A stretch of DNA of 64,000 bases, taken from assembly GCA_965214225.1 (NCBI GenBank), contig OZ243942.1, positions 2,583,779-2,647,778 of the forward strand, written 5' to 3'. How positions within the stretch are numbered: position 1 is the stretch's first letter; each line of letters starts with the position of its first letter. The translations under genes and the position numbers were made by a program. This DNA is from Polyangiales bacterium. GTDB taxonomy: Bacteria > Myxococcota_A > Polyangia > Polyangiales > CBDCBC01. Positions 9,699-63,676 of the stretch are shown here, piece by piece. The notes below the pieces were generated by a model. That model ran no database searches, was not told where the DNA came from, and saw only the letters and a list, made by a program, of their open reading frames with translations.

Positions 9699-11940
9699 AG
9701 AGAAAAACACATCCGGCAGCGCGCTGGGTAGAATCGCCAAGCGGGCGAAGGATTCGGTTGCGCGACCGAAGAAGGGTGGCGCAGCGTCAAGAGCAGCCGC
9801 GTCCACCACACCAGCGCCGAAAGATACCCGGGCGTCAGATGAGGCGCCTCAGCAGCGACGTGGAAAGCCAAAGGGGCATTCTCAACAGCCATCAGCCTCA
9901 TCATCGAGCGCAGGGTCATCGAGCGCAGGGTCATCGAGCGCAGGGTCATCGAGCACAGGGTCATCGAGCACAGGGTCATCGAGCACAGGGTCATCGGACA
10001 CTGAAGTTACGCGCATAGAGGTTTCGGAGACGGATTCGAGGACGCTAGACCCATCCACCATCGGCGCAACGGACCTCCACCTGTTTGCCGAGGGGACGCA
10101 TACGCAGCTTTATAACAAGTTGGGTGCGCACATTGAGCGACGGGCTGGCAAATTAGGCGTGCGCTTTGCTGTATGGGCACCTAACGCAGAGAACGTCTCA
10201 GTTGTTGGAGACTTTAATGGCTGGGAGCGCGGTAAGCATGCGCTTTCCCCGCTCGAGGATTCGGGGGTGTGGCACGGCTTCGTGAAGGGCGTAGGTGTGG
10301 GAAACCTCTACAAGTACTTCATTAGAGGGCGTAGTGGTTTTGAAGGAGAGAAAGCAGATCCCTTTGGGTTTGCGCAAGAGCTACCTCCTCAAACCGCATC
10401 TGCAGTCACTGAGCTTAGCTACACCTGGGACGACGCTGCTTGGATGAAAAGTCGAGGAGAGCGCAACGCGTTGTCCTCTCCCATGTCGATTTACGAGGTG
10501 CACCTTGGATCGTGGATGCGTGTTTCTGACGAGGGATACCGGTCCTTGAGTTACCGCGAGCTTGGTGAGCGGCTGTCCGCGTATGTGAGGGAGCAGGGCT
10601 TCACGCACGTTGAGTTTCTTCCAGTGATGGAGCATCCGTTCTACGGCTCGTGGGGGTACCAAGTCACAGGTCACTTCGCGCCAACTGCCCGCTACGGAAG
10701 CCCGCATGAGTTCATGGAGCTGGTGGATGTGCTGCATCAGGCAGAGATAGGCGTGATCCTTGACTGGGTTCCCGCGCATTTCCCTAAGGATGCGCACGGC
10801 CTCGGTTACTTTGATGGGACGCATCTCTTCGAGCACGCTGACCCGCGTCAGGGACTGCATCCCGACTGGGACAGCCTAATCTATAACTACGACCGGCACG
10901 AGGTGCGAAGCTTTCTTCTGTCGAGCGCCACCTTTTGGCTCGATCGGTATCACATTGATGGCTTGCGTGTGGATGGTGTAGCTTCGATGCTCTACCTCGA
11001 CTACTCGCGTCGGGAGGGGGAGTGGATTCCGAATCAGCACGGTGGTCGGGAGAACCTCGGTGCGATTCAGCTGCTGCGCTCGCTCAACGAGTCTGTCTAC
11101 CGAGATTATCCTGACGTGCAGACCATCGCAGAGGAGTCGACAGCGTGGCCCATGGTCTCAAGGCCCACATACCTCGGCGGGTTGGGGTTTGGACTGAAGT
11201 GGGACATGGGCTGGATGCACGACACGCTGCAGTACTTCAGCAAAGAGCCTGTCTTTCGACGCTACCACCAGGGTGACCTAACCTTCCGGGCGCTGTACGC
11301 ATTTAATGAGAACTTTACCCTGCCTCTTTCGCACGATGAGGTAGTTCATGGGAAGGGTTCACTTCTGCAAAAAATGCCTGGTGATTTATGGCAAAAGTTT
11401 GCCAACCTCCGGCTTCTCTACGCCTACATGTTTGCATCCCCAGGAAAGAAACTGCTGTTTATGGGCGCGGAGTTTGCGCAGTGGAGCGAGTGGAATCACG
11501 ACGGCACCCTGGAGTGGCATCTTTTGGAGCAGCAATCACACGCTGGCATGCAGCGGCTGGTCCAGGAGCTCAATCGGATATACCGAGGCACCTCCGCACT
11601 TCATCAACTTGATTGCGACGGCGCAGGTTTCCAATGGGTGGATACAAGTGATAGTGACTCTAGCGTCCTGTCGTTTCTCAGGTTGGGCCAGAACGATGAG
11701 GCGCGTGTGCTTATCGTGTGCAACTTCACGCCTCTGCCGAGGCACAACTACCGCGTTGGAGTGGATTCGGACGGTTTCTGGCATGAAATACTCAACAGCG
11801 ACGCCGACGAATTTGGAGGAAGGGGTCACGGAAACTTGGGAGGCGTTGAGGCTGCTCCTGTTCCTTGGCATGGAAGACGGTGCTCACTAAACCTCACCTT
11901 GCCTCCCCTTTCAGCTATCTATTTATCAAGAGAAGATTGA
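9691..11940 (+). CDS. glgB: 1,4-alpha-glucan branching enzyme GlgB with low-complexity N-terminal extension
   Basis: Branching-enzyme core motifs ([53 protein letters not shown]). ATG 9691 chosen (MAEEKNTS), giving an 8-nt overlap with the malQ stop. The track start 9622 would overlap malQ by 77 nt. Confidence 0.9.
9901..9990 (+). repeat. 15-bp tandem array x6 inside the glgB N-terminal extension ([10 protein letters not shown] repeats)
   Basis: TCATCGAGCGCAGGG x3 followed by TCATCGAGCACAGGG x3, read directly. In frame (5 codons per unit). Confidence 0.95.
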
Positions 11941-11949
11941 GGATCCGTT

Positions 11950-13839
11950 ATGACGCGCGGTGATCAAGCTGCCTCCCGCAGTGGAGCGCCGGGTCTGATG
12001 ACAGTTAGTGGCGATCTGCGCACACCACGTCTAGGCGCGCTGCCTTCCGATGGTGCGTGTGACTTCTGTGTGTGGGCGCCCGACCAGGCCCAGGTGAATG
12101 TGCACTTCTGTGCCGATAAGCGCGAGGTTTCTCTTCAGCGCTACGCCCAGGGATACCACCGTGGCCGGGTTGAGCGCGTTCTCCCGGGCGCACGCTATTT
12201 CTACCGGCTCGCCGATGGAGCGCTGCGGCCTGACCCCGCCTCGCGCGCGCAGCCTGACGGGGTGCACGAAGCTTCCGAGGTCGTGGATCTCAGCTATCCA
12301 TGGACCGACAGACACTGGCACGGTCGCCCATTGTCGGCCTACGTGATCTACGAGCTTCACGTGGGCACATTTAGTAAGGACGGCACCTTCGAGGCGGTCA
12401 TTCCCCACCTTGAGTCGCTGCGTGACCTTGGTATCACCGCACTCGAGATCATGCCGGTCGCAGAGTTCGCCGGCTCTCGCAACTGGGGCTACGATGGCGT
12501 ATATCCGTTTGCTGCGCTAGCGGCTTACGGAGGCGCACGTGAACTGCAGCGACTTGTAGATGCCTGCCACGCGCACGACCTAGCTGTGTTGTTGGATGTG
12601 GTCTACAATCATCTTGGGCCGGAGGGCAACTACTTGCGCGAGTTCGGTCCCTACTTCACCGACACGTACGTTACGCCGTGGGGTGAGGCCTTGAACTTCG
12701 ACGGACCGCAGAATGAAGGGGTGCGGTCATTTTTCATTCAGAATGCCGCCTCCTGGATCACGGACTTTCATTTTGATGGTCTTCGACTGGACGCGGTGCA
12801 TGCCATCTTGGACCACTCAGCAACGCCCTTTCTAGAGGAGCTGGCCGAGGCGGTGCATGCGGCAGGTCGGCGGCAAGGCCGCGAGGTGGCAGTGATAGCG
12901 GAGTCGGATCAGAATGATCCCCGCACAGTGGCTGCTCCGCGGAGTGGTGGGCTTGGTATGGATGCGATGTGGTGTGATGACTTCCACCACGCGGCGCATG
13001 CTCTGCTGACGGGAGAGACAAATGGTTACTACTGCGACTACGGCAAGGTCTCGCATTTAGCAGCTGCCTGGCAGACTGGGATGACATACGGCGGAGAGTA
13101 TTCAGATTTTCGCAAGCGAAGGCACGGTCGGCGCAGCCAGGATTTGCAGCCGCACAACGTGGTCATCTGTACGCAGAACCACGACCAGATCGGCAACCGT
13201 CTCAGAGGCGACCGCCTTGCCGCGTCACTCGATCTAGAAAGTCTCAAGCTTGCCGCTGGTGTCACTATTCTGTCGCCCTTCGTTCCCTTGCTGTTTATGG
13301 GGGAGGAGTACGGAGAGACGGCGCCGTTTCAGTACTTTACGAGCCACTCAGATGCGGCCTTAGTGGAGGCTGTACGCAGGGGCCGTAAGGAAGAGTTCAG
13401 CAGCTTTGGTTGGACGGATGAGGTTCCCGATCCTCAAGCCGCGGTGACATTCGACTCATGCGTCTTGCGTCGCGATAAGAGGCACGAGGGAGCTCACGGC
13501 TTGCTCTACGACTTCTACCGCGACCTCTTGCTGTTGCGGCGGCAGCTCCATACGGCAGAACCGGACGAGGTCTTATGCTTTGAGCGCCAGCAAGTTCTTG
13601 CCATCCGCCGCGGCGGAATCGCCTGGATGATGTTCAACTTCTCGCAGCAGACCTCAGCCGTGACCGTGCCTATTCCCGAGGGCGATTGGCAACGGGCTCT
13701 GGCTTCGAGTGAGGAGCGGTGGGGTGGCGAGCATGAACCACCAGAAGCCTTCCTCTCTTCGAGTGGCGAGATCTCAGTGGCCATCTACCCCCGCGCATTT
13801 GTAGTATACATGCGCCCCGAGCTAAGCCTGGCTCCGTAA
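11950..13839 (+). CDS. treZ: Malto-oligosyltrehalose trehalohydrolase TreZ
   Basis: 629-aa ORF with motifs YELHVGTFS, NWGYDGVYPFA, LLDVVYNHLGPEGNY, GLRLDAVHAI and IAESDQND. Confidence 0.9.
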   Translation: MTRGDQAASRSGAPGLMTVSGDLRTPRLGALPSDGACDFCVWAPDQAQVNVHFCADKREVSLQRYAQGYHRGRVERVLPGARYFYRLADGALRPDPASRAQPDGVHEASEVVDLSYPWTDRHWHGRPLSAYVIYELHVGTFSKDGTFEAVIPHLESLRDLGITALEIMPVAEFAGSRNWGYDGVYPFAALAAYGGARELQRLVDACHAHDLAVLLDVVYNHLGPEGNYLREFGPYFTDTYVTPWGEALNFDGPQNEGVRSFFIQNAASWITDFHFDGLRLDAVHAILDHSATPFLEELAEAVHAAGRRQGREVAVIAESDQNDPRTVAAPRSGGLGMDAMWCDDFHHAAHALLTGETNGYYCDYGKVSHLAAAWQTGMTYGGEYSDFRKRRHGRRSQDLQPHNVVICTQNHDQIGNRLRGDRLAASLDLESLKLAAGVTILSPFVPLLFMGEEYGETAPFQYFTSHSDAALVEAVRRGRKEEFSSFGWTDEVPDPQAAVTFDSCVLRRDKRHEGAHGLLYDFYRDLLLLRRQLHTAEPDEVLCFERQQVLAIRRGGIAWMMFNFSQQTSAVTVPIPEGDWQRALASSEERWGGEHEPPEAFLSSSGEISVAIYPRAFVVYMRPELSLAP

Positions 13840-13892
13840 ATCATCGTTCTTGTCGTGTTGCTGCGCGACTTGTTCAGCCCTAGGGTAGCCTT

Positions 13893-16016
13893 ATGGAAAT
13901 CTGGCCCGGTGAACCTTATCCTCTTGGTGCGTCGTATGACGGTGCGGGAACGAACTTTGCGGTCTACTCGAGTGTGGCCGAGAGGGTTGAGCTTTGCCTC
14001 TTTGAGGAGGATGGCACCGAGACACGGGTCGACCTCCCAGAGGTCACGGCCTACATCTGGCACGGGTACTTACCGCATACCGGACCCGGACAACGCTATG
14101 GCTTTCGCGTGCATGGGCCGCACAACCCGAAGACAGGCGACAGATGTAGTGCGAGTAAACTACTAATCGACCCGTACGCAAAGTCGATTTCCAACTGTGT
14201 AGAGTGGAATGAGGCGCTATTCGACTATGACTTCGACGATCCGGAGGGGCCCCCCAACGCGCTAGATAGCGGTCCGTATGCGCCCAAGGGCGTGGTGGTC
14301 AGCCCCTACTTCGACTGGCGAGGGGATCAGCTTCTTCGAACCCCGTGGCATCAAACGATCATTTATGAGCTTAGCGTCAAAGGCTTCACTGCGCAGCATC
14401 CGGACCTCCCTCCGGAGCTGCGCGGCACGTACGCTGGTCTCGGACACCCTGCCGTCATCCAGTACCTTAAAGAGCTTGGCATCACCGCAGTGGAGCTCAT
14501 GCCCGTGCACGCCTTCATCCACGACGACGTGCTGCGAAAGCGCGGCCTGCGGAACTTCTGGGGCTACAACACACTCAGCTACTTCGCTCCGCATCATGAG
14601 TATGCGAGTCAGCAAGAGCCGGGCGCTTCGGTGCATGAGTTTCAGCAAATGGTGCGCGCCCTCCACGAGGCAGGCATTGAGGTCATTCTTGATGTTGTGT
14701 ACAACCACACCTGCGAAGGCTCCCACCTTGGGCCAACGCTAAGTTTCCGCGGGATCGACAACGCCGCCTACTACCGGCTCAGTGAAGAGGATCCCCGCTA
14801 CTATGTCGACTATACGGGCTGCGGGAACAGCCTCAACATGCAGACGCCGCACGTGCTCCAGCTGATCATGGACTCATTGCGATACTGGGTTCTCGAGATG
14901 CATGTGGACGGCTTCCGATTTGATCTAGCCTCTACGCTTGCCCGCGAGCTGCATGAGGTCAATCGGCTCTCCGCCTTCTTCGACCTGATCCAGCAGGATC
15001 CAGTGGTTAGTCAGGTCAAGCTTATTGCCGAGCCGTGGGACATCGGCGAGGGGGGCTACCAAGTCGGGAATTTCCCGCCACTGTGGTCGGAATGGAATGG
15101 GAAGTATCGGGACACCGTGCGGGACTTCTGGCGCGGCCAGGACCAGACGCTGGGCGAATTCGCTAGCCGCTTTACCGGAAGCTCTGACCTCTATGCTTCC
15201 AATGGGCGACGCCCCTTTGCCAGCATCAACTTCGTAACCTGTCACGACGGCTTCACCCTCAGGGATATGGTCTCGTACAACGAGAAACACAACGAGGCCA
15301 ACGGTGAAGGTAATAACGACGGTGAATCTCATAACAGGTCGTGGAACTGCGGCGTTGAAGGCGACACGGACGATGCAGGAATCCTGGAGCTGCGCGCGCG
15401 ACAGCAGCGAAACTTTCTCTCCACTCTGATGCTTTCGCAGGGCGTACCCATGATCCTCGCCGGCGACGAGATTGGCCGAAGCCAAGGGGGAAACAACAAC
15501 GCCTACTGCCAAGATAATGCGATCTCCTGGGTTAACTGGAGTGAAGCGGATCAAGCACTGCTGGAGTTCGCTAAGGGGCTGATTCGGATCAAAACGGAGC
15601 ATCCCGTTTTCTCCCGACGAAGGTGGTTTCAGGGCAAGTCCATTCGTGGCTCACAGTTCGCGGATATCCGCTGGTACCGTCCAGACGGCAAGGAAATGGG
15701 TAGAAAAGATTGGGACACAGGTTACGCCAAGACTGTGGCAGTGTACCTAAACGGGGAAGGACTGGCCGGAAGAGACAAGTACGGCCGGCTTATCTTGGAT
15801 GACGATTTCTACGTCATCTTTAACGCGCACTATGAGGAGTTGGACTTCCACCTTCCGAAACGTCTTCCCGGTCCATGGCAGCTGATGGTTGACACGCAGC
15901 TTGCCACCATGCCGGCATCCGCCGCTGTTGAGTCTGACACGCCCGCGCCGGCCGAGAAGGTGCATGCCGCGGCTCGCTCTGTCGTGCTGTTGCGGCATGA
16001 ACGAACGCGTAGCTGA
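13893..16016 (+). CDS. glgX: Glycogen debranching enzyme GlgX
   Basis: 707-aa ORF. N-terminus is MEIWPGEPYPLGASYDGAGTNFAVYS; motifs VILDVVYNHT, GFRFDLAS, LIAEPWD and FVTCHDGFTL. Confidence 0.9.
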   Translation: MEIWPGEPYPLGASYDGAGTNFAVYSSVAERVELCLFEEDGTETRVDLPEVTAYIWHGYLPHTGPGQRYGFRVHGPHNPKTGDRCSASKLLIDPYAKSISNCVEWNEALFDYDFDDPEGPPNALDSGPYAPKGVVVSPYFDWRGDQLLRTPWHQTIIYELSVKGFTAQHPDLPPELRGTYAGLGHPAVIQYLKELGITAVELMPVHAFIHDDVLRKRGLRNFWGYNTLSYFAPHHEYASQQEPGASVHEFQQMVRALHEAGIEVILDVVYNHTCEGSHLGPTLSFRGIDNAAYYRLSEEDPRYYVDYTGCGNSLNMQTPHVLQLIMDSLRYWVLEMHVDGFRFDLASTLARELHEVNRLSAFFDLIQQDPVVSQVKLIAEPWDIGEGGYQVGNFPPLWSEWNGKYRDTVRDFWRGQDQTLGEFASRFTGSSDLYASNGRRPFASINFVTCHDGFTLRDMVSYNEKHNEANGEGNNDGESHNRSWNCGVEGDTDDAGILELRARQQRNFLSTLMLSQGVPMILAGDEIGRSQGGNNNAYCQDNAISWVNWSEADQALLEFAKGLIRIKTEHPVFSRRRWFQGKSIRGSQFADIRWYRPDGKEMGRKDWDTGYAKTVAVYLNGEGLAGRDKYGRLILDDDFYVIFNAHYEELDFHLPKRLPGPWQLMVDTQLATMPASAAVESDTPAPAEKVHAAARSVVLLRHERTRS

Positions 16017-16045
16017 GTGCGCTCTGAAGAGTTCGTGGTAAGTGG

Positions 16046-18670
16046 GTGATCATGCCCAAAGAAGCTGAAGCGCCTTGTGCAACGTATCGGATCCAGCTCG
16101 CTGCATCCTTCGGATTTCGGTCCGTGGCGGCTCTTGCGCCCTATCTATCCGAACTGGGCGTCAGCCACGTTTATCTTTCCCCGGTTCTGCAAGCGGCTCC
16201 GGGAAGCACACATGGTTATGATGTTGCTAATCCGTCGCAGGTTAGCGCTGCACTTGGCGGCGAAGAAAACTTCGAACTTATGTGCCGCACTCTGCACGCT
16301 CATCAGCTCCGGGTGCTGCTCGACATTGTTCCGAACCACATGTCGGTGGCGCTTCCTGCCGCCAATCCCTGGTGGTGGGATGTTCTTGCTAACGGACGTC
16401 AAAGCGCCTTCGCAGCCTTCTTCGACATTGACTGGGACCATTCGGAGCCCGCAGAGGCTCGAGGCAAAGTGTTGCTCCCAATCCTGGGGGATGCTTACGC
16501 ACGGGTTCTTGAGGAGGGACACATTCGCCTTGCGTCGGGAGAGGCTGAGACACGGTTACAGGTGTACGACAAGGAGCTTCCGCTACGCGCCGGCAGTGTT
16601 GAAGAAGTTGCAGCCGAGAGCAAGAACCTTGTTTCTGGCTCGGACAAGCTAATTTCTGGCACCGACACGCACGCTCTTGACCCGGCACGTGCTGAAGTCA
16701 TAAAAGCTATCAACGAGAGTCAGCATGTTCTTCACCAATTGCTTGAGAAGCAGCACTACCGATTGGCGCACTATCGGGTAGCGCAGTCGGAACTCAACTA
16801 TCGAAGATTTTTCGATATCAACGAGCTGGTGGGAGTGCGGGTGGAAGATCAGCGCGTGTTTCAGCACACCCATCAGCGCATCGCGCAATGGGTGAATAGT
16901 GGAATGGTGCATGGCCTTCGGGTAGACCATCCGGACGGTCTGGCTGACCCGAAGGCGTACTTCCAAGGCCTTAGAGCGGCTGCTCCAGCAGATTATGTGG
17001 TGGCTGAGAAGATCCTAGAGCGCGGCGAAGCGCTGCCCTCCGATTGGGCCGTCGACGGCACCACCGGCTACGACTTCCTCGGGGTTGCGAACGCCTTATT
17101 CGTCTGGCCGGGTTCGGAGGACACGCTGTCCTGCTTCTACGACGAGTTCACGCAGGGCCATCGCGCCGAGGCTGGCTTTTCGCAGCTGGCGCGAGAAAAG
17201 AAGGAGTTTGCACTTCGTTCGCTTCTTTCCGCAGACGTTCACCGCGTTGTAAGGGTCCTTCGGTCTGCTTGTTATCAAAGCGTCCGGTGGCGTGATGTGA
17301 CTGCACCCGCGCTGCTAGACGCTTTGGTGCAAGTGATCACGCACCTGCCGGTGTACCGTACATACTTCCGGGCGGAAGAGGTGGCATCGACGAAGGAACG
17401 GGAACTACTTCGTGACGCTGTCAGTGCGGCTAGGCGCAGCCATCCTGAGCTCCAGGATGAAGCACTTTCCGCCATTGAGGAGCTACTCCTCAATCCGAAT
17501 CAAAGCCCCGAGAGCCGCCAGTTCCTCTCGCAGTTTCAGCAGGTCTCGGGGCCGGCCATGGCGAAGGGTCTTGAGGATACGGCGTTCTATTGCTTCAGCA
17601 GGCTGGCGTCCCTCAACGAGGTAGGTGGTGACCCCGCCCACTATGGACTGAGCCTCACCGAATGGCATCGCTTCTGTGAGGGTATGAGTGCCGACTGGCC
17701 ACAAACGATGACAGCCACTTCCACTCATGACACAAAGCGGAGCGAAGATGCGCGCATCCGTATCTCGTTGCTGTCCCAGTGCTCCCAGCGCTGGATTAGC
17801 TTCATTCGAGAGTGGGATCCGCGGCTCAGGGATGACGGTCGCTCTCATGGCTTTACGTCCCTTCTGGATGCCGAGACGGTGTACCTCTTCTACCAGATGT
17901 TGGTGGCAGCATGGCCCATCGATGAAGAGCGTCTGACGGCTTTCCTAATGAAGGCTGCTCGCGAGGCGAAGGTGCACAGCTCATGGCATCACCCGAATGC
18001 GGGTTACGAAGCGGCTCTTTCTGAGTTCTGTCAGCACACGCTGCGGCACAGCGAGTTCACGCATGCACTGCGACAGTTTTTAGCGCCTCTTGTCGACGCC
18101 GCTCACCGCGAGTCGTTGAGTCAGGTTATGCTCAAACTGACCTCACCGGGTGTACCTGATATTTACCAAGGAAATGAGCTCTGGGATTTCAGCCTGACGG
18201 ATCCAGATAATCGAAGACCCGTCGACTTTGACCTGAGGCGCCGGCTTCTGACGCAGACAAAGAGCATGTCGGCAGACGAGGTGATGGAGCAGGCCGGGGA
18301 GGGCGTGATCAAACTGTGGCTTACCCACCACGTGTTAAAACTGCGCATGAAGTACCCGCGTTCCTTCAATGAAAGAGGAAGTTATCGCGGGCTGGAGCTC
18401 GCTGGGGAAGGCGCTCAACTCGCTGGGGAAGGCGCCCAACTCGCTGGGGAAGGCGCTCAGAGTGTCGTTGCCTTCGCACGAGGCGAAAACATTGTGGTTA
18501 TGGTGCAACGGTTTACGCTTGCCGCGCCAATCGATGAATCGCTCATCCTTACCTTGCCAGCGGGGAGTTGGCGTAGTGCGCTCCACCAGTCGGAGAACGC
18601 TCTACGCGGCCAGGTGGGCGTGTTGAGGGCATGCGGTCCTCTTCCAGTGGCTGTACTGGTGCGCGACTGA
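16046..18670 (+). CDS. treY: Malto-oligosyltrehalose synthase TreY
   Basis: 874-aa ORF with motifs TYRIQL, LLDIVPNHM, GLRVDHPDGL and STHDTKRSED. Start is GTG 16046 or ATG 16052. Confidence 0.9.
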   Translation: MIMPKEAEAPCATYRIQLAASFGFRSVAALAPYLSELGVSHVYLSPVLQAAPGSTHGYDVANPSQVSAALGGEENFELMCRTLHAHQLRVLLDIVPNHMSVALPAANPWWWDVLANGRQSAFAAFFDIDWDHSEPAEARGKVLLPILGDAYARVLEEGHIRLASGEAETRLQVYDKELPLRAGSVEEVAAESKNLVSGSDKLISGTDTHALDPARAEVIKAINESQHVLHQLLEKQHYRLAHYRVAQSELNYRRFFDINELVGVRVEDQRVFQHTHQRIAQWVNSGMVHGLRVDHPDGLADPKAYFQGLRAAAPADYVVAEKILERGEALPSDWAVDGTTGYDFLGVANALFVWPGSEDTLSCFYDEFTQGHRAEAGFSQLAREKKEFALRSLLSADVHRVVRVLRSACYQSVRWRDVTAPALLDALVQVITHLPVYRTYFRAEEVASTKERELLRDAVSAARRSHPELQDEALSAIEELLLNPNQSPESRQFLSQFQQVSGPAMAKGLEDTAFYCFSRLASLNEVGGDPAHYGLSLTEWHRFCEGMSADWPQTMTATSTHDTKRSEDARIRISLLSQCSQRWISFIREWDPRLRDDGRSHGFTSLLDAETVYLFYQMLVAAWPIDEERLTAFLMKAAREAKVHSSWHHPNAGYEAALSEFCQHTLRHSEFTHALRQFLAPLVDAAHRESLSQVMLKLTSPGVPDIYQGNELWDFSLTDPDNRRPVDFDLRRRLLTQTKSMSADEVMEQAGEGVIKLWLTHHVLKLRMKYPRSFNERGSYRGLELAGEGAQLAGEGAQLAGEGAQSVVAFARGENIVVMVQRFTLAAPIDESLILTLPAGSWRSALHQSENALRGQVGVLRACGPLPVAVLVRD
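18398..18460 (+). repeat. 21-bp tandem array x3 inside treY (LAGEGAQ x3)
   Basis: CTCGCTGGGGAAGGCGC(T/C)CA(A/G) repeated three times, in frame. Confidence 0.95.
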
Positions 18671-19143: not shown

Positions 19144-20037
19144 ATGTACAAAGTGCTCATCAGCGGCCAGCGAGGTCTGATCGGCACGGCTTTGGCGGAC
19201 GCACTTCGCCGTCAGGGCGCCCAGATAGTCGCTCTCACTCGCAAGCGTCGGGAGCCTTCCGACATTGAGTGGAATCCCACCGAAGACCGGATTGAGGTCG
19301 AGGCACTAAGGCAGTCGGGCTGCAATGTCGTCGTCCATCTCGCCGGAGAGAGTGTAGTTGGCCGCTGGAACTCACAGAAGAAGCAGAGCATTTACCAAAG
19401 CCGTGTGGAGGGCACGCGGCTTCTCGTCCGAGGAATGCGGGAGGCCGGCATGACTCCAAGCGTCTTCGTTTGCAGCTCTGCAGTCGGGATATACGGCGAC
19501 CGCGGCGATGAACAGCTGGATGAAAGCAGCGTAAGAGGAACAGGCTTCCTCGCAGAGGTAGCGGCGGATTGGGAAGCGGAGGCCGACCGCGCGCAGGACG
19601 TCGCGCAGCGCGTGGTCAAGCTGAGGACAGGTATCGTGCTCTCCAGGAAGGGGGGGGCGCTGACGAAGATGCTTCCCGCCTTCCGTTTGGGGCTCGGCGG
19701 ACGGTTAGGAACAGGTCAGCAGTGGATGAGCTGGGTCCATTTGGACGACCTTGTCGGCATCATCCTGCACAGCCTCAAAGCGGAAGAGGTGAGAGGGCCG
19801 GTCAACGGAACCGCGCCAGAACCGGTGCGCAACGAAGAGTTTACTCGCCTGCTCGCCCGTGCGCTTCATCGGCCTGCGCTACTGCCCGTTCCTCGAGCCG
19901 CTGCCAAGTTAGTGCTGGGTGAGTTTGCCGACGAGGCTCTCGTGGCAAGCATGCGTGTGCTTCCTGCAGCCGCTTTGCGCTCTGGTTATGCCTTCCGCTA
20001 TGCGCGGCTGCAAGAAGCGTTTGCGTCGCTCGTCTAG
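19144..20037 (+). CDS. TIGR01777/YfcH-type epimerase family protein (SDR fold plus DUF1731-like C-terminus)
   Basis: 297-aa ORF with an N-terminal Rossmann motif (VLISGQRGLIGTAL) and a C-terminus (GYAFRYARLQEAFASL) typical of this family. Confidence 0.8.
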   Translation: MYKVLISGQRGLIGTALADALRRQGAQIVALTRKRREPSDIEWNPTEDRIEVEALRQSGCNVVVHLAGESVVGRWNSQKKQSIYQSRVEGTRLLVRGMREAGMTPSVFVCSSAVGIYGDRGDEQLDESSVRGTGFLAEVAADWEAEADRAQDVAQRVVKLRTGIVLSRKGGALTKMLPAFRLGLGGRLGTGQQWMSWVHLDDLVGIILHSLKAEEVRGPVNGTAPEPVRNEEFTRLLARALHRPALLPVPRAAAKLVLGEFADEALVASMRVLPAAALRSGYAFRYARLQEAFASLV

Positions 20038-20205
20038 CGGGCCTGATTCTAACGGTTTTGCCCGCCGGCAGACACGGTGTCTTCTTTCTGCTCGGACGTA
20101 CAGCGCGTCCACGCCTAGTGCTGTTGGTGGAGTGGCCCCTGCTCCGGTTGAACGGCCTTGGAGTGGGCACGCGTTGACCGATGGAGCAGGGTACACCGCA
20201 TAAGA

Positions 20206-20238
20206 AAAACCCCACGCGCCGAATACGCATGGGGTTTT
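20206..20238. terminator. Bidirectional intrinsic-terminator-like hairpin
   Basis: AAAACCCCACGCG-CCGAATA-CGCATGGGGTTTT forms a 9-bp GC-rich stem with one mismatch, flanked by an A-run and a T-run. It lies between convergent genes ending at 20037 (+) and 20435 (-). On the minus strand it is followed by TTTTTCTT. Confidence 0.55.
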
Positions 20239-20434
20239 AGTCATTGAGCGCCGAGGGATATCTCGCATGCGTCACCCGACTCCCGTTGCCGGCGTGGTAG
20301 CTGACTCTACCACTGCGTCACCTAGACGGGCTTATTGGATCACCGAGGCCCGGTCGCTGGCTCACCTAGGCCTGGTCGCTTGTCTAACGAGAGGGTCGAG
20401 GCTCAGTGACTGCATCATGCCTCGGGGCGCTGAA

Positions 20435-22814: not shown

Positions 22815-22960
22815 GGTTACTCTAACCTCCATTCGCCCGGGTTGTGTGCATGCAGTGTGCCAAGGGGACGGAGATGGATTTTGAGGCCAGGCGGCGTCGC
22901 GATGGGGCAAACCTGATTGCACGTTCGCCACGATCGAGGCACATCCGCACAGTCTTCCCC

Positions 22961-26733: not shown

Positions 26734-26741
26734 AGGTCCTC

Positions 26742-51609: not shown

Positions 51610-51928
51610 AACCCTAGACTTCCACCTTAGCTCAAACGTCCATTCCGTGAGATGGCGTACTCGCTCGCCCGGCTCACACCTACTCCGGCCCACTTCGACT
51701 CGGTCCACTTCAACTCCGGCCGGGGTTGCCATCAAGACCCTTTTGCCATCCAGACGCTGGTGCACAACCGTGTTTTGGTGGAGCTCCAGCTGACTGATGG
51801 TTCCTCTCGAGGGGCTGAAGGTATAGCACACGTGCCCCAGGGGAGCTACGTCTGGCGCTGCTAAACTGCGGCATCTCGCGGCGGGTAAACTGGGGCGTCT
51901 CGCAGCGGGGAAAGCGAGGCAAAGCGCG

Positions 51929-54175: not shown

Positions 54176-54321
54176 GTCCCTAGGGTACCCGCCACGCCGC
54201 TCCGGGCAAGGCCGGTCGTCCTGTAAGGCGGCTGCTCGCTGACTGCAGGTCCCACTGGACGCGGTGGCGCCGTCGCGTTACTGTTTGCCGTTGCTCGAAC
54301 CCATCTCGCAAGCGCTTGCTT

Positions 54322-54350
54322 TGAACTTTGTGCGCGGCACGGGTGTCTGG
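54322..54350 (+). promoter_or_regulatory. Candidate autoregulated ECF (sigma-E-type) promoter
   Basis: TGAACTT-N16-GTCTGG compares with the GGAACTT-N16-GTCTAA consensus. It ends 84 nt upstream of the ECF sigma gene. Confidence 0.35.
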
Positions 54351-54433
54351 GAGAAGAGTTTCAAAACAGCTTCGGTGCGGGAAAGGGATGCGCATCGGCG
54401 TATTTTACACCGACCTTCGGCGGAACAAAGCTT

Positions 54434-55108
54434 GTGGTGAATCAACCTGGTGTCGTGTCGTCTAAGCTTGATGACCGTGTGGAAGACTCAGCGTCACCCC
54501 CTGATTCCGTTATCATCGAGCAAGCGAAAGCCGGTGACCAACAGGCATTCCGCCTGCTTTTCGACCGATACCACCGCCGCGCCTTCGCGGTGGCGGTCGG
54601 TGTGGTCAAGAACCGTCATGACGCTACAGACATCGTTCAGGAAGCGTTTGTCAAAGTTCACAGGAACCTGCATGGCTTCGCTGGCAGTTCAAGTTTTTAT
54701 ACCTGGTTTTACCGAATATTGATGAATTTAGCGATCGACCATATCCGCAAGCAGCGCACCAGAAGAAGGTTTGATTTCGACGAGAAAGCGCCGCCGGCTC
54801 ATGCGACTGAGTTGCCATGCACACCGACCCATGTTGGCCATGCCCCTGACCATCGCGCGGAGCGGCGTGAGCTGTCAGCTCAGCTGACAAGGGCGCTCGG
54901 CGAGATCCCCTCGCACCACCGATCGGTGATCCTCTTGCGCGAGGTGGAGGGTCTAAGCTACGCGGAGATCGCCGAGGTGCTTGATGTCCCCAAAGGCACG
55001 GTGATGAGCCGGCTCTTTCACGCGCGAAAGCGTCTTCAGCTTCTTCTTGAGCCTTACCTCCTGCACGGAGATGACAACGCAACGCGCCAGGTGGAGGTGG
55101 GGCCATGA
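54434..55108 (+). CDS. ECF sigma factor (RpoE-like)
   Basis: 224-aa ORF with a GTG start. Region 2 is AFRLLFDRYHRRAFAVAVGVVKNRHDATDIVQEAFVKV ... FYTWFYRILMNLAIDHIR. Region 4 is LSYAEIAEVLDVPKGTVMSRLFHARKRL. Confidence 0.9.
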   Translation: MVNQPGVVSSKLDDRVEDSASPPDSVIIEQAKAGDQQAFRLLFDRYHRRAFAVAVGVVKNRHDATDIVQEAFVKVHRNLHGFAGSSSFYTWFYRILMNLAIDHIRKQRTRRRFDFDEKAPPAHATELPCTPTHVGHAPDHRAERRELSAQLTRALGEIPSHHRSVILLREVEGLSYAEIAEVLDVPKGTVMSRLFHARKRLQLLLEPYLLHGDDNATRQVEVGP

Positions 55109-55710
55109 ATCAGGTGAGTGAGCGAGAGGAAATGCTGAACCGGCATTTCGACGCCGAGCTTGATCCAGCAGAAGAAGCGGCATTCGTGCAAGAGCTGAGC
55201 GTGCAAGAGCGACGGACGCTTCAGACGTGGACGACACTCCGTGAGGAGCTGCAGCAACTCGCAACTCGCGATGCAGAAGAACTTAACTCGGATGAGCTGC
55301 ACGGTCGAATTATGGTCGCCGCATCGAAGGAGACGGGGTCGCAGAGACTTTCAGCCTCCGTTCATCAGCTGAAGATGCAGAGGAACAAGGGCTTGCGTGC
55401 ACTCTCGTGGGGTGCTCCTGTGCTGTTAGCGGCAGCAGCCGTGCTACTGGCGGTCATCCTCAGTGACAACATCCCCAGTGACAACATTTTCAGTGAGAAC
55501 GGGCAAGGGGGGGCGCACGTCGCGCGTGTTGATCTCGCGTCACCGGATGTCGCCTCTGAGGTGCTTGAGGTAGACTTCGGCGATGAATCAGGAGCGGTGT
55601 TATCCGTGTCTACCGAGCGTGGGGTTGAAGTTGCAGTGGTTTGGCTCGATGACGCAACTGACGATGAAGATCAAACGAGTTCGGACGGAGTATCAGATGA
55701 CCAGTTGTGA
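55105..55710 (+). CDS. Single-pass anti-sigma factor (RseA-like organisation)
   Basis: 4-nt overlap with the sigma gene. N-terminus is LNRHFDAELDPAEEAAF. One TM helix (APVLLAAAAVLLAVIL) and an acidic C-terminus. Confidence 0.6.
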   Translation: MNQVSEREEMLNRHFDAELDPAEEAAFVQELSVQERRTLQTWTTLREELQQLATRDAEELNSDELHGRIMVAASKETGSQRLSASVHQLKMQRNKGLRALSWGAPVLLAAAAVLLAVILSDNIPSDNIFSENGQGGAHVARVDLASPDVASEVLEVDFGDESGAVLSVSTERGVEVAVVWLDDATDDEDQTSSDGVSDDQL

Positions 55711-56278
55711 GAAACGCCTGAGGTATACTAGGCGCAAGATGTCGGCTGTTGCTGTATCGGCTGCTGTTGGGGCCTGCATCGCAGCCGCTTTGCCGCCACC
55801 AGTAGCTCGTGCTGAGACTTCGGCTGCAGTTGAGGGTGAGGTTCTGCAGATTTTTGCAGCAGAGGAAGCAGGCGTGGTGGACAAGGAGCTTGCCAAGATT
55901 CCGGCACTCAAGCGCATGCCGTTCAAGGCGTTTGGCACCATGCGTGTGCTTGAGCGCAAGCGCGTTGCTTTGCGGAAGGGCCAAGTAGCCGCGCTGACTT
56001 TAAAGAACGGTCGACGCCTCGCCCTTACATCCAGAGGCAAGTCAGGCACACGCCATGCGTTCAAGATTCACCTCAGCTCGGATAATAACTCGAAGGGCAA
56101 GGGTTTGGGCAAGGGTGTGACAGTCGAGGCAAAGGCGCAGAGCGGGGAGTACGTCTTTCTCGCCGGCCACTCGGTCACGGCACCCGCTGAGCGCGCAGAT
56201 TCGAAGGAACAGCAGCGTTCAAGAAAGAAGGGGACCCTGATCCTCGGCATTCGCGTGATGAGCGACGCGAAGCAATAG
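55697..56278 (+). CDS. Secreted hypothetical protein, third gene of the ECF operon
   Basis: Start moved to ATG 55697 (alternative 55739). The signal peptide is AVAVSAAVGACIAAALPPPVARA. No recognised family. Confidence 0.5.
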   Translation: MTSCEKRLRYTRRKMSAVAVSAAVGACIAAALPPPVARAETSAAVEGEVLQIFAAEEAGVVDKELAKIPALKRMPFKAFGTMRVLERKRVALRKGQVAALTLKNGRRLALTSRGKSGTRHAFKIHLSSDNNSKGKGLGKGVTVEAKAQSGEYVFLAGHSVTAPAERADSKEQQRSRKKGTLILGIRVMSDAKQ

Positions 56279-56285
56279 GCGCATT

Positions 56286-56987
56286 GTGCGACGCGATGAT
56301 CCCGATGCCATGCTGCTCGCTACCGGAGCGGTGGCTTCGCACCATCGGCACCTCAATGCCGATAAACTCATCGAGCTGCTGAGGCCTCGGGTGACTGAGA
56401 AGCGTTGGCAACGGATGTGCCGCGTAGCGCAGGCGAGGGTCACGAGTGTGCACGTGGTGTTGGATTGTCTTTCGGACCCTCACAACGTGGCTGCGGTTTT
56501 GCGGAGCTGCGACGCATTCGGCGTGCAAAACGTGCATCTTGTCCGGAGTGAACATCCCTACAAGATCGCCAAAAGTGTGGCCCGCAAATCGGAGCAGTGG
56601 CTCACTCTCCAGCTGCACGATGACATGCGAACATGCCAAACCAGGCTGCGGGAAGAGAAGCTTGACCTTTACGTAGCCACTATAGATGGCGAGCTGTCGG
56701 TAGACGAGTTGCGCAGGATCCCGCGCGTGGCAGTCGCGTTGGGGCACGAGCGGCGGGGTCCTTCATCTGAGCTTTTAGCGGGAGCTGCGGGAACATTCCG
56801 CATCCCGATGGAGGGCTTCGTCGAAAGCCTAAACGTGTCGGTCGCCGCCGCTGTGGCACTTTATGCACTGACCCAAGGTCGCCATGGCACGTCATCAGAG
56901 GCCGATGTGAAGCGTATACTCGCGCAGTTCCTGTCACAGTCTCTTCCGCCTGCAGCATCTGCGCCTGCTCCAGAGCTGCCCTCTTAG
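56286..56987 (+). CDS. SpoU/TrmH-family RNA 2'-O-methyltransferase
   Basis: 233-aa ORF with motifs DPHNVAAVLRSCDAFGV, ALGHERRGPS and IPMEGFVESLNVSVAAAVALY. Confidence 0.85.
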   Translation: MRRDDPDAMLLATGAVASHHRHLNADKLIELLRPRVTEKRWQRMCRVAQARVTSVHVVLDCLSDPHNVAAVLRSCDAFGVQNVHLVRSEHPYKIAKSVARKSEQWLTLQLHDDMRTCQTRLREEKLDLYVATIDGELSVDELRRIPRVAVALGHERRGPSSELLAGAAGTFRIPMEGFVESLNVSVAAAVALYALTQGRHGTSSEADVKRILAQFLSQSLPPAASAPAPELPS

Positions 56988-57099
56988 GAGGGTGCACGAT
57001 CAGATTGAGAAGAGGGTGCATATGGGTGGGTTTTTGCGGGGTCGTCATTGCGGGCCTTCAGGTACAGCGCAGGAGATTAGATTGAGCTAAGGTGGCGCG

Positions 57100-59469
57100 A
57101 TGGACCGCAGCTACGACCCATTCCGCGAGAGGGCGCGTTCAGGCTTCGGAATCTGGTTTAGGCGCATTCTCTGGGGCGGGCTAGCCGCAAGTGCGGCAGG
57201 TCTCTTACTGGTCGCTGCCCTGTTTTGGCACTATAGCCGCGGTCTTCCCACGGTTGAGTCACTCAAGGACTTTCGTCCCCGACAGACGATCAAGATTCTG
57301 GATCGCCAATTGCGGCTGCTAGCGCAGCTATCGCCGGAGCGTCGTACGGTGGTGCCGCTGAGCAAAATACCGCGGGTCATGGTGCTCTCGGTCTTGGCCG
57401 CTGAAGACGCCGATTTCTACCAGCACCTCGGGCTCGATTATCCCGGCATCCTGCGCGCGGTTTACAAAACGCTGTTTGCGCGGAGCTCGGTGCAGGGAGC
57501 GAGTACCATCACGCAGCAGGTGGTGAAGAACCTTCTACTTACGCCGGAACGAAAGCTTTCAAGGAAAGTCCGCGAACTCATCTTGGCTCGGCGACTTGAG
57601 CAGCAACTTACCAAAGACGAGATCCTGCATCTCTACTTGAACCTAATAAACTTTGGGCACGGGCGCTATGGAGTCGAGGAAGCCAGTTTGCTCTACTTTG
57701 ATAAGCACGTGGAAGAGCTGACCCTAGGTGAGGCGGCCGCGTTAGCGGGCATACCTAAAGCCCCTGCGCGCCTCTCTCCGCTTACCCATCCGGTTGCTGC
57801 CAAGCGCCGGCAGTCGTTTGTTTTGCGTCAGCTTGCAAGGAAGAGAGCGCAGTACTGGCCTGACCTTGCGCTGGAAGACATTGAGAAAGCCGAGTCCGTT
57901 CCTCTCAAAACGGTGGAGTCAAGGGGGACTAACGTGGTGGCGCCGGATGTCCTCGGATTGGTGCGGTCTGAGCTGAAGCGTCATGTCGGCGCTGAAGCAG
58001 TCAAGCGAGGCGGGTACACGGTGTATACCTCGATCGACCTGGAGGCCCAACAGCACGCGCGCGAGGCGCTTCAGCGAGGTTTAGAGGCCTACGACCGGCG
58101 CCACAAGCTCATCGGGCGGCTGCACTCTCCAAGTGGGGGGAAGCGGCGCGGTCGTGGAGGTGAACTCCAGACGCAGCGCCTTTACCGTGGCGTGATCACC
58201 GAGGTTGAGGAGGACCGACTCACGGTAGATGTTTCTGGCCAATCGGTGTTCGCGTCGCTGCAGCCCTTGACGCGCTACAACACGCGGCGTCTACCCGCCT
58301 CGACTTTCGCGCGCAAGGGTGCGGAAGTGCAGGTGGTTGCGGAGCAGCCGATTGAGAGAGGCTACCTGGGGCACGTGGTGGTGGGTCCAGAAGGCGCCGT
58401 GGTGGTCTTGGATCCTGACACGCGCGAAGTCGTCGCCCTGGTCGGCGGCTATCAGCGCATCGCCGGTTTCAACCGGGCATGGGACGCGCTTCGGCAGCCG
58501 GGCAGCGCTTTCAAGCCGGTTGTTTACGCGAAAGCCATTGCCAAGGGGCGTTACACACCTGCGTCGATCGCCATCGATGCGCCCGAAGTCTACGAGAACT
58601 GGAAGCCAAAGAACTACCAGAAGACGGAGTACAAAGGTGCGGTGAGGCTAAGGCAGGCCCTGGCCCAATCGATCAATACCGTGGCAGTGCGCCTCATGGA
58701 AGAACTCACGCCGCAAGAAGTAGCGCACTTCGCGCACAGCTTGGGAATACAGTCCGAACTGCAGCCGACGCTCTCGCTTGCGCTTGGTGCCTCTGAGGTG
58801 CGCGTGGTGGAGCTGACTAACGCCTACGCAACGTTTCTCGCAGGCGGCGTGCACCTTCCCTTCACACTCATTCGTCGCATCACCACGCATTCTGGGCGTG
58901 ATGTCTACACACGACCGCCAGCGACCACCACCCAGGTCATGGGCGAGGCCGAAGCGTATGTGATGACCGACCTATTGCGGGGGGTTGTGGAGGAGGGTAC
59001 GGCCAAGGCCGCTCTTCGATTGAAGGTGCCCGCAGCAGGAAAAACAGGCACAAGCAACGACGCGCGAGACGCGTGGTTTGTAGGCTTCACTCCTGCCTGG
59101 GTTGCGGGAGTTTGGGTAGGATACGACCAACGTCAGCCGTTGGGGCAAGGTGAGGGCGGAAGTAAGACAGCACTTCCGATCTGGGTGGACCTTATGGAAC
59201 GCCTTCCTACCGAAGGCCGCGCGGCCTTTTCTGTGCCTGATGGCGTGGTTCACGCCCAGATTGACCCAGAGACGGGTTTGCTAGCTTACGCGGATATGCC
59301 GGGTGCGATTGATGAAGTGTTCGTGGAGGGAACAGTACCCACCGAGGTGGTGGATCCTCCCGGCATGGTCGGAGCCGATGAGTTTCTGATGCAAGAGCTT
59401 GCGGGCGACGGAGCTGTAGAAGCTTCCCCACCGCGGCCGCCTCCTCAGGTGCAGCAGGAGGTCCCCTAA
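57100..59469 (+). CDS. Class A penicillin-binding protein (PBP1A-type transglycosylase/transpeptidase)
   Basis: 789-aa ORF with GT51 motifs (EDADFYQHLG, GASTITQQ, RKVRE) and transpeptidase motifs (SAFKP, SIN, KTGT). Confidence 0.9.
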   Translation: MDRSYDPFRERARSGFGIWFRRILWGGLAASAAGLLLVAALFWHYSRGLPTVESLKDFRPRQTIKILDRQLRLLAQLSPERRTVVPLSKIPRVMVLSVLAAEDADFYQHLGLDYPGILRAVYKTLFARSSVQGASTITQQVVKNLLLTPERKLSRKVRELILARRLEQQLTKDEILHLYLNLINFGHGRYGVEEASLLYFDKHVEELTLGEAAALAGIPKAPARLSPLTHPVAAKRRQSFVLRQLARKRAQYWPDLALEDIEKAESVPLKTVESRGTNVVAPDVLGLVRSELKRHVGAEAVKRGGYTVYTSIDLEAQQHAREALQRGLEAYDRRHKLIGRLHSPSGGKRRGRGGELQTQRLYRGVITEVEEDRLTVDVSGQSVFASLQPLTRYNTRRLPASTFARKGAEVQVVAEQPIERGYLGHVVVGPEGAVVVLDPDTREVVALVGGYQRIAGFNRAWDALRQPGSAFKPVVYAKAIAKGRYTPASIAIDAPEVYENWKPKNYQKTEYKGAVRLRQALAQSINTVAVRLMEELTPQEVAHFAHSLGIQSELQPTLSLALGASEVRVVELTNAYATFLAGGVHLPFTLIRRITTHSGRDVYTRPPATTTQVMGEAEAYVMTDLLRGVVEEGTAKAALRLKVPAAGKTGTSNDARDAWFVGFTPAWVAGVWVGYDQRQPLGQGEGGSKTALPIWVDLMERLPTEGRAAFSVPDGVVHAQIDPETGLLAYADMPGAIDEVFVEGTVPTEVVDPPGMVGADEFLMQELAGDGAVEASPPRPPPQVQQEVP

Positions 59470-61712: not shown

Positions 61713-61940
61713 GGGTGACGTCCCTCAAGAAAGGTAAGCGGTATGCCCGGGTACCAGCGTTACGCAGGGCGGGTACCAGCATTACGCAGGGCGGTATCGC
61801 GCGATGTGCGGATAAGTCCAGGTAGCAGGGGAGGCGACTTGTCGCTGACTCTGCTTCCGACGTAAGCATTCAGGTACCCTTCGGGCAGTAGAAAACCCCC
61901 GGGATCGCAGGAATGAAATGATGAGAACTCCGTCTCAAAG

Positions 61941-62066
61941 CTCTCCCTGCTCCGCTCTCCCTGCTCCGCTCTCCCTGCTCCGCTCTCCCTGCTCCGCTCT
62001 CCCTGCTCCGCTCTCCCTGCTCCGCTCTCCCTGCTCCGCTCTCCCTGCTCCGCTCTCCCTGCTCCG
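61941..62066. repeat. 14-bp tandem array x9 (CTCTCCCTGCTCCG)
   Basis: Nine perfect units (126 bp) in the convergent intergenic region. Confidence 0.95.
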
Positions 62067-62481
62067 GCTTTCGTCCTCAAGACCTGTCCTAACGCACCTA
62101 GTTGCGCGCCGGTGGGTCAGTGCGCGCCGGTGGGTCAGTGCGCGCCAGGAGGTCTTCGCGTGGAGTCCTCCATGGTCGCAGGAGTGAAACGACGAGCCAC
62201 ACGTGCTTCCGGGAGGGCGACCAAGCTCGCACGACGGTCTCAAGGACCTCGAACTCTGACGGTCTACCCTCCCGGGGCACACCTTGACAACCACTTTACC
62301 GGCCGCTTGCTAACATACAAGAACTCTGGCCGTGCTTCTGCAATCCCAGCGCTCGGATCAGCTAGGACACCTGCACGTTTACCTTCCAACGTACCGAAAC
62401 ACCACCGTTAGCTGCTCCCGCGTTCAGTGCACGAGCCGCGCTCTGGTGCAGAAGCCCTGCCGCAGAAGCCCTGACGCAGAG

Positions 62482-63048: not shown

Positions 63049-63237
63049 GGATCGTGTTCTTTAGCAACGGAGAGTAGGGCGCAAGGAGTTGATGCGGAAA
63101 CGGATTGTGGTAAGCCACTTCGCGTCCATCGACGGATGTGCTACACCCCAGGGCTTAGAGAGCCTCAGATATAAGAGTGAGAACAGAAGAGGCCGCTCCC
63201 AAAGGTGAGAGCGGCTACAAAGCAGCGGTAGGTCATC

Positions 63238-63585
63238 ATGCAAGCAACGCCTCGTCAGCAAGTCACAGAAACTTACACCGATAAACAGACCCTGGTGAAG
63301 GCCATCGAGTCACTCACAAAGGACGACCTTTGGATCGACAGGGTGAGTGCGAAGGGTCTCGAGCGCATCTCGAACAAGAAGCTTATGCGCCTGCACGCAC
63401 GACTGATGGAGCTAAAAGAGAACTTCTCCAGTCGAGCCAAGCTCGTCGACGCTGTGGCCGAGCTACAGGGTCATGCCAAGGATGCTGACTACAAGGCGCG
63501 TCTCCAGGAGTACCCCGCGCCGAGGCTGCTGGACATGCATAGGGCGCTGACGAAGCGGCAGGCTGCAAAGGGAGAGGCACGCTAA
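63238..63585 (+). CDS. Hypothetical helical protein (115 aa)
   Basis: An ORF of reasonable composition with no competing ORF. No motif recognised. Confidence 0.45.
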   Translation: MQATPRQQVTETYTDKQTLVKAIESLTKDDLWIDRVSAKGLERISNKKLMRLHARLMELKENFSSRAKLVDAVAELQGHAKDADYKARLQEYPAPRLLDMHRALTKRQAAKGEAR

Positions 63586-63605
63586 GCGCCGTCTCGGGGC
63601 CCCTG

Positions 63606-63676
63606 AACCTAGCCGCTCTAAACCTAGCCGCTCTAAACCTAGCCGCTCTAAACCTAGCCGCTCTAAACCTAGCCGG
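63606..63676. repeat. 15-bp tandem array x4.7 (AACCTAGCCGCTCTA)
   Basis: Four perfect units plus an 11-nt partial unit, starting 21 nt after the stop at 63585. Confidence 0.95.

Follow-up and report, generated by a model that had tools for sequence, protein, structure and literature searches.

Unusually dense short tandem arrays with locally unique units in 64 kb of an uncultured bacterial genome

Introduction

Why should a stretch of bacterial DNA carry so many short tandem arrays, and what allows some of them to persist inside genes? This question is raised by a 64-kb stretch of contig OZ243942.1 (positions 2,583,779 to 2,647,778 of the forward strand), hereafter called the window, meaning the whole stretch that was analyzed. 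Large surveys have found bacteria to be generally depleted of short tandem repeats (STRs), with a few exceptions (PMC12699852), and those known to be repeat-rich are for the most part pathogens or cyanobacteria, with units of 1-9 bp. The arrays described here are probably bacterial minisatellites of the variable-number tandem repeat (VNTR) type, products of local microhomology-mediated duplication, slipped-strand expansion and a selective filter, with no sequence-specific system involved.

Abundance of tandem arrays

Arrays were detected with Tandem Repeats Finder (TRF) at a main cut-off score of at least 50, and those with a score of at least 100 were regarded as strong. In the window, 54 TRF rows at a score of at least 30 collapsed to 32-33 distinct arrays at a score of at least 50, and a unit-by-unit layout identified 10 arrays that are 100% perfect and 19 that are at least 94% identical. 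All arrays laid out in this way, and by TRF, are head-to-tail direct copies without spacers. Controls were 80 glgB-centered loci of other genomes, drawn from among the matches listed, amounting to 1.39 Mb with a G+C content of 0.52-0.74 and including many long-read metagenome-assembled genomes. The window contains 0.50 arrays per kb versus 0.074 per kb in the controls (Poisson P ~2e-16). For strong arrays, 14 were found against an expectation of 0.32 (0.22/kb versus 0.005/kb; P ~1e-18), and bases within arrays account for 3.4% of the window versus 0.5% of the controls. When controls were resampled at a 64-kb equivalent none exceeded 17 arrays, and Markov shuffles of the window yielded 0-3 arrays per 64 kb, mostly 0. 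Perfect arrays with at least three copies numbered eight in the window versus zero in the controls. Strong arrays in the controls numbered seven, with units measuring 33-362 bp throughout.

These results bear out the exceptional density of short arrays that an initial annotation had proposed by eye, since the window lies far above comparable GC-rich genomes (64 kb versus 1.39 Mb) and above shuffles with almost none. Essentially all arrays on its list were recovered by TRF with the same positions, unit lengths and copy numbers. Its two-copy arrays were recovered as well, apart from a 28 bp x2 array that was located solely as a period-28 TRF reading of a 14-bp array.

We also counted arrays by Burkholderia pseudomallei-style criteria (at least 4 units, at least 30 bp and at least 80% identity). 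Nine arrays qualified, corresponding to 141/Mb versus 17/Mb in the controls, with a 95% range of ~64-267/Mb because the estimate derives from nine events. B. pseudomallei itself is published at 70-102/Mb, compared with 37/Mb in Yersinia pestis and 12.6/Mb in Bacillus anthracis (PMC1853098). The array density of the window is at least equal to that of B. pseudomallei, the published repeat-rich benchmark.

Unit length and uniqueness

The excess of arrays was limited to units of 9-30 bp, most of them 14-22 bp long. Perfect tandem duplications with 9-30 bp units numbered 21 in the window versus 3.2 per 64 kb in the controls. No excess of microsatellites was found in the window, where simple sequence repeats (SSRs) with 1-8 bp units occurred at or below control density. 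Likewise, no excess of long arrays with 5-11 bp units was found, as the only members of this class are a 6-bp and a 9-bp array and SSRs of 5-8 bp are not enriched.

Comparison of the units with one another, in all rotations and on both strands, gave longest shared substrings with the same distribution as those of shuffled units, and a motif shared among units was rejected on this basis. Copies of a unit outside its own array were found nowhere in the window. Since the units are unrelated and have no copies elsewhere in the window, a dispersed repeat family of the STRR, TAACTGA or REP/BIME type is ruled out within it, each locus having its own unrelated unit. That each unit is unique also speaks against the involvement of a sequence-specific enzyme. 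The G+C content of the units (0.60) equals that of the background. A common motif in the 30-nt flanks was also rejected, with CACGCG/ACGCGC reaching only the 95th percentile of the null distribution, as were CRISPR arrays, given that the copies are directly adjacent without spacers and no Rfam CRISPR match was obtained.

Location relative to genes

A gene map was built from open reading frames (ORFs), a self-trained codon score and Pfam, with starts refined by translation and synteny. About 82% of the window is coding and 18% non-coding. Non-coding DNA holds 24 arrays (2.1/kb), which cover 13.8% of non-coding bases, whereas coding sequences (CDSs) hold nine (0.17/kb). Among the spacers, convergent ones were the densest (3.07/kb), followed by divergent (2.10/kb) and tandem ones (1.05/kb). 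The initial annotation had also described arrays as often sitting next to gene starts or stops. This pattern did not hold up: the median distance to the nearest gene end is 68 bp versus ~102 bp under random placement within spacers (P ~0.1), so arrays lie no closer to genes than such placement would put them. Matches to promoter-like and terminator-like sequences, scanned for in 20,001-40,000, were at shuffle level and none coincided with an array.

The arrays in non-coding DNA, as called by TRF (with the unit layout in addition for 37051-37154 and 39318-39481), are as follows.

20336-20380: 22 bp x2 (86% identity), convergent spacer between epimerase and YtxH genes
22962-23149: perfect 9 bp x20.9, unit CGGTATAGC, divergent spacer between ElaB-like and AI-2E genes
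25733-25846: perfect 17 bp x6.7, following surE by 41 bp and preceding a sigma-70 gene by 168 bp
27776-27820: 20 bp x2.2, divergent spacer between PfkB and PhoD
29378-29428: perfect 16 bp x3.2, 18 bp past the PhoD stop codon
33817-34256: three short arrays, 18 bp x2.3, 15 bp x2.4 and 16 bp x2.3, in the 632-bp spacer after the MNT gene
35457-35531: degenerate 15 bp x4.6, abutting the DJ-1 stop codon
37051-37154: 18 bp x5.8, edge copies degenerate and inner copies identical
37357-37399: 21 bp x2 (81% identity)
38660-38880: 12 bp x2.7 and 16 bp x2.9, 933-bp convergent spacer between SDR and DUF892
39318-39481: 14 bp x8.6 and 14 bp x3.7, ~12 copies in sub-families GCACTGTGTTTGCG and GCACAGTGTCTACA
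40994-41182: 18 bp x3.9 and 19 bp x3, divergent spacer between lipoprotein and DUF427
51682-51913: degenerate 15 bp x2.6 and 24 bp x2.2, in the stretch from the UvrD stop codon to the following gene
61748-62480: 22 bp x2.1, perfect 14 bp x9.1 (61940-62066), perfect 18 bp x2.4 and 14 bp x2.4, 769-bp convergent spacer
63606-63675: perfect 15 bp x4.7, 20 bp past the stop of ORF 63238-63585

The two convergent spacers at 38592-39524 (933 bp) and 61713-62481 (769 bp) are very long for a bacterium and contain four arrays each; neither Rfam families nor convincing ORFs were found in them. The 9-bp array at 22962-23149 is nearly self-complementary (8/9 bases pair; single-stranded DNA fold z = -3.6) and could extrude a cruciform in the ElaB-like/AI-2E divergent spacer. 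No in-frame start codon was found upstream of it. Three ORFs of 150-170 aa, at 22817-23335 (-), 25594-26064 (+) and 39011-39514 (+), exist only through stop-free arrays and are likely false gene calls. Such arrays are a warning for gene callers, as several repeat-made, stop-free ORFs in the window are probably not genes. In the 632-bp spacer that holds three short arrays there is also a strong hairpin at 34084-34111, with a 12-bp stem (GTGCTTGTAAAG-GTTG-CTTTACAAGCAC).

Arrays within genes and the reading frame

Nine arrays lie in CDSs, eight of them in the interior. They were identified with TRF and translation, except that the TreY array is given from TRF and the last one from its unit layout.

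9901-9996 (+): 15 bp x6.4, GlgB, encoding (SSSAG)3(SSSTG)3 in an N-terminal extension
18398-18459 (+): 21 bp x3, TreY, encoding (LAGEGAQ)3
21843-21928 (-): degenerate 18 bp x4.8, C-terminal tail of the ElaB-like protein, encoding (GDGRLS)n
22364-22475 (-): 30 bp x3.7, ElaB-like protein, encoding (TPSHDKLSSN)4
22603-22690 (-): perfect 18 bp x4.9, ElaB-like protein, encoding (ANPSTG)5
43489-43518 (-): 6 bp x5, N-region of the TolC signal peptide, encoding (AG)5
49221-49277 (-): perfect 18 bp x3.2, N-terminal tail of the second AI-2E transporter, encoding (DTVPKQ)3
55455-55500 (+): 15 bp x3.1 (83% identity), anti-sigma factor, SDNIP/SDNIF/SENGQ just after the transmembrane helix
36100-36144 (-): perfect 22 bp x2, straddling the final 13 codons of ORF 36106-36360; its second copy is read in a shifted frame and supplies the stop codon

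All eight interior arrays (8/8) have units that are multiples of three, and all encode low-complexity tails or linkers. The proposal that arrays inside genes always preserve the frame therefore stands for CDS interiors; the exception is the 22 bp x2 array at 36100-36144, which breaks the frame at the extreme 3' end of its ORF. There, an ancestral tail ...PTRFPKTPTLT*, as reconstructed from the sequence, would have become ...PTRFPKTPNQVP*. With this array included, triplet units make up 8/9 of CDS arrays versus an expected 1/3 (binomial P = 0.001). For non-coding arrays the initial annotation had noted many units that are not multiples of three, which holds for half of them, while the other 12/24 are triplet multiples. 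As a result, the contrast between coding and non-coding arrays is modest (Fisher P = 0.047).

Homologues indicate how some of these arrays are placed. In GlgB, 65/80 homologues align only from approximately residue 100 onward, so that the array sits in a lineage-specific N-terminal extension. When TreY was aligned with its homologues from the control loci, a gap of 12-14 residues opened opposite the array and a single related heptapeptide was present (LAGDGPR in locus L002). As the homologues carry one heptapeptide, the TreY array is a local in-frame triplication. The orthologue of the anti-sigma factor in a syntenic locus (L082, see below) aligns at the array across a variable linker.

The array in the AI-2E paralogue may be of a different nature. 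The annotated ATG at 49484 lacks a ribosome-binding site and is placed 42 bp from the divergent PRC-barrel gene, and each 18-bp unit carries AGGA-N5-GTG, which combines a Shine-Dalgarno-like sequence with a start codon. The array (49221-49277) may thus be located upstream of the true start, hence in the 5' untranslated region (UTR), and its repetition may multiply potential translation starts.

Host lineage and nearest relatives

Protein searches with TreZ, UvrD and PBP1A returned, beyond exact self-matches, no relative above 61% identity, and a metagenome scan with a lineage-specific lipoprotein found no relative. Among named organisms, TreZ matched Vicinamibacteria best, and the best matches of UvrD and PBP1A were to Myxococcales, Polyangiales or Sandaracinaceae. 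A six-gene order (UvrD, ECF sigma, anti-sigma, hypothetical, SpoU and PBP1A) is shared between window positions 51929-59469 and positions 5074-12385 of L082 (ENA ERZ25039495 contig_33599, 913 kb, G+C 0.70), at 32-57% protein identity. Judging from these gene-level affinities, the host is most likely a deep-branching relative of the Myxococcota with a lower G+C content. Its contig of 3,531,598 bp is under half the size of the Myxococcus xanthus genome.

In 22 kb of L082 there are five arrays, all weak, although the density of the window would predict ~4.9 strong ones. In the nearest relative found (L081, from JGI sample 3300015615; G+C 0.52; 58% PBP1A identity), 16 kb contain two to three arrays. 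One of them, a perfect intergenic 18 bp x2.2 array just downstream of a gene (L081 9959-9997), resembles those of the window in style. From these short samples (22 kb and 16 kb), array richness looks lineage-specific.

Origin of the arrays

We propose that each array would begin as a tandem duplication of 9-30 bp, produced by replication slippage or template switching between direct repeats of ~3-8 bp. From two copies onward, whole units would be gained and lost by slipped-strand mispairing or unequal sister-strand exchange at a pace exceeding decay by point mutation, which leaves perfect arrays with degenerate edges. In non-coding DNA such arrays would be tolerated and accumulate. Within genes only in-frame units would survive, and only where low complexity is tolerated, namely in linkers, signal-peptide N-regions and terminal tails; a frame-breaking duplication could survive solely at the extreme 3' end of a gene.

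Several features of the window are consistent with this scheme. At the end of two-copy arrays stands a partial third copy of 1-8 bp. It reaches at least 3 bp in 8/11 (chance ~1.6% for one array) and fits the footprint of duplication between short direct repeats. The multi-copy arrays at 37051 and 39318 are perfect inside and degenerate at the edges, and the GlgB array is arranged in AAABBB blocks. Arrays of 70-86% identity coexist with perfect ones, a range that fits a continuing process of birth and decay. Density, unit-size class, unit uniqueness, location, the frame rule and the local origin in TreY are observed directly; from the whole we infer slippage as the mechanism, a recent origin of the arrays and a lineage that either generates such duplications at a raised rate or purges them weakly. 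In mutation-accumulation lines of M. xanthus, an array with a 16-bp unit changed by whole units and STR indels were biased to insertion (21 insertions versus 6 deletions; PMC11069108). The nearest cultured phylum thereby offers a documented case of slippage at such a unit size.

MutS-type mismatch repair does not act on loops as large as 9-30 nt, a size limit that fits the lack of a microsatellite excess. Hairpin formation as a general driver of slippage was rejected, as only the 9 bp x20.9 (z = -3.6) and 30 bp x3.7 (z = -2.5) arrays fold better than shuffles. The hairpin-capable 9-bp unit forms the longest array, which is a single case.

Other observations weigh against an origin by slippage and selection, or narrow its reach. 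The mild excess of triplet units among non-coding arrays (P = 0.07 versus 1/3) is not predicted by a slippage model, and large partial copies (e.g., 16/18 bp) may be decayed end copies rather than microhomology. UvrD, the one repair gene that the window holds, looks canonical: all residues invariant among 14 homologues are present, which gives no hint of a repair defect behind a high rate. A genome-wide process is an extrapolation from 64 kb of a 3.53-Mb contig. Finally, the defining behavior of VNTRs is copy-number polymorphism, and the arrays are known here from the sequence of one genome alone. It is doubtful, if conceivable, that the whole 3.53-Mb genome is in a 'minisatellite mutator' state, with ~1,500 arrays of unique 9-30 bp units, through a lineage-specific change in replication or repair and with L082 free of the trait. 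Candidates for such a change would be a slippage-prone polymerase, or that single-strand exonucleases by which slipped intermediates are normally aborted have been lost. Were this true, the genome would be among the most array-dense bacterial genomes that we found reported.

Alternative explanations

Intergenic arrays might instead be contingency or regulatory elements, whose copy number tunes promoter geometry, 5' UTRs or the choice of start, and which are kept by selection for switching. Several arrays are placed where such a role could be exerted: divergent promoter spacers hold the 9 bp x20.9 array (ElaB-like/AI-2E), the 18 bp x3.9 and 19 bp x3 arrays before DUF427 and the 20 bp x2.2 array (PfkB/PhoD), and a sigma-factor gene has the 17 bp x6.7 array 168 bp upstream. 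In addition, the 9-bp array is cruciform-capable, every 18-bp unit in the AI-2E paralogue contains AGGA-N5-GTG, and many neighboring genes are of stress type. However, arrays are densest in convergent 3'-3' spacers, which lack promoters (3.07/kb versus 2.10/kb in divergent ones), their distance to gene ends is that of random placement, the unit differs in each array, and promoter-like and terminator-like matches in 20,001-40,000 remained at shuffle level. Moreover, on/off switching would require non-triplet units, and no CDS-interior array has one, and the neighbors are housekeeping and stress genes rather than surface-antigen or restriction-modification genes. We therefore regard it as unlikely that the arrays in general serve regulation or contingency, while single arrays such as the 9 bp x20.9 and 17 bp x6.7 ones could still act in this way.

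The window could also be a local repeat-prone or weakly constrained region, such as a stress-gene neighborhood with long spacers, in an otherwise ordinary genome. Our view is limited to 64 kb, the first 9.9 kb hold no array with a score of at least 50, array counts follow the amount of non-coding DNA, which is high here (18%), and arrays of B. pseudomallei are known to cluster (PMC1853098). Yet the arrays extend over 54 kb and across unrelated operons for glucan metabolism, efflux, the cell wall and transporters, the G+C content is uniform (0.57-0.61) without the mark of an island, and the density in coding DNA alone (0.17/kb) exceeds the whole-sequence mean of the controls (0.074/kb), making a purely local peculiarity improbable. 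Far less credible still is an artefact of assembly or polishing, which might be suspected of a single 3.53-Mb contig that is probably a metagenome-assembled genome. Against it, all eight interior CDS arrays are in frame and encode sensible peptides, all stages of decay are found among the arrays, array lengths of 30-190 bp fall well within single reads, the long ORFs, which reach 1,147 aa, are unbroken, and the long-read metagenome-assembled genomes among the 80 control loci have no such excess. Slippage followed by selection thus remains our preferred explanation.

Comparison with known repeat systems

The closest parallels are found in B. pseudomallei K96243 (U'Ren et al. 2007, PMC1853098). 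Both there and in the window there are many perfect arrays, ~70% of arrays are intergenic, in-gene arrays mostly have triplet units, and the arrays are read as products of slipped-strand mispairing or recombination. On the other hand, units in B. pseudomallei measure 6-9 bp versus mostly 14-22 bp here, density is 70-102/Mb versus 141/Mb by the same criteria (the latter from 64 kb), and 36% of its arrays have duplicates at other genomic sites, whereas the units here are all unique within the window. B. pseudomallei is an opportunistic pathogen, while the present host belongs to an uncultured environmental lineage (PMC1853098 for the B. pseudomallei repeat data).

In the account given within PMC4679880, the long SSRs of 5-11 bp (LSSR5-11) in large-genome non-pathogens (Mrazek et al. 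2007) are likewise phylogenetically sporadic, favor triplet units in coding DNA and owe their abundance to an expansion tendency of longer units without a specific function. They differ, as far as that account describes them, in unit class and genome size: only 2/33 arrays of the window (6 bp and 9 bp) fall into the 5-11 bp class, and the genome here is small (3.5 Mb). TAACTGA heptamers of Beggiatoaceae and cyanobacterial heptamer repeats (PMC4679880) are also abundant short direct repeats in intergenic DNA, but consist of one or few motifs at >100 loci, whereas no two loci here have related units. In host-adapted pathogens, phase-variable contingency loci (PMC11868660) are tandem repeats whose copy number shifts by slippage; however, they have 1-7 bp units that are out of frame in CDSs or lie between promoter elements, an arrangement absent here from CDS interiors and, as regards promoter-like sites, from the 20,001-40,000 segment scanned. 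Their association with surface-antigen, lipopolysaccharide or restriction-modification genes was not found among the Pfam-annotated neighbors of the arrays, which are glucan enzymes, transporters, sigma factors and stress proteins. The 16-bp array of M. xanthus (PMC11069108) shares the unit-size class, the phylum of the nearest homologues and change by whole units, but it is one locus only, in a 9-Mb genome for which no abundance of repeats has been reported.

Mostly intergenic arrays, triplet units in genes and an origin by slippage are hence already known (PMC1853098 and the account in PMC4679880). What differs here is the 14-22 bp unit class, the unique units, the density and the uncultured environmental host, which together make an extreme case and no new mechanism. 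If the density holds genome-wide, this bacterium would be a natural model for the birth, growth and decay of minisatellites, and a pointer to a difference in replication or repair that sets the slippage rate for loops beyond mismatch repair. The arrays would also be ready strain-typing markers for an uncultured lineage.

Other genes of the window

The remaining gene content includes several clusters, listed by position.

2269-18670, one strand: seven-gene alpha-glucan/trehalose cluster (glgE, treS-mak fusion, malQ, glgB, treZ, glgX and treY), uniting the GlgE pathway with the TreY/TreZ pathway
20435-22826 (-): operon encoding the ElaB-like disordered protein with its membrane anchor, a holin-X-like protein and YtxH; stop and start codons overlap by 4 bp
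30708-32294 (-): caspase-domain (peptidase C14) protein of 528 aa, adjoining the 258-aa ORF 29796-30572, which has no Pfam match
32910-33768 (-): HepT/MNT (nucleotidyltransferase) toxin-antitoxin pair with overlapping genes

Near the ElaB-like operon, general-stress types are frequent (SurE, DUF892, DJ-1/PfpI, SDR and MscS).

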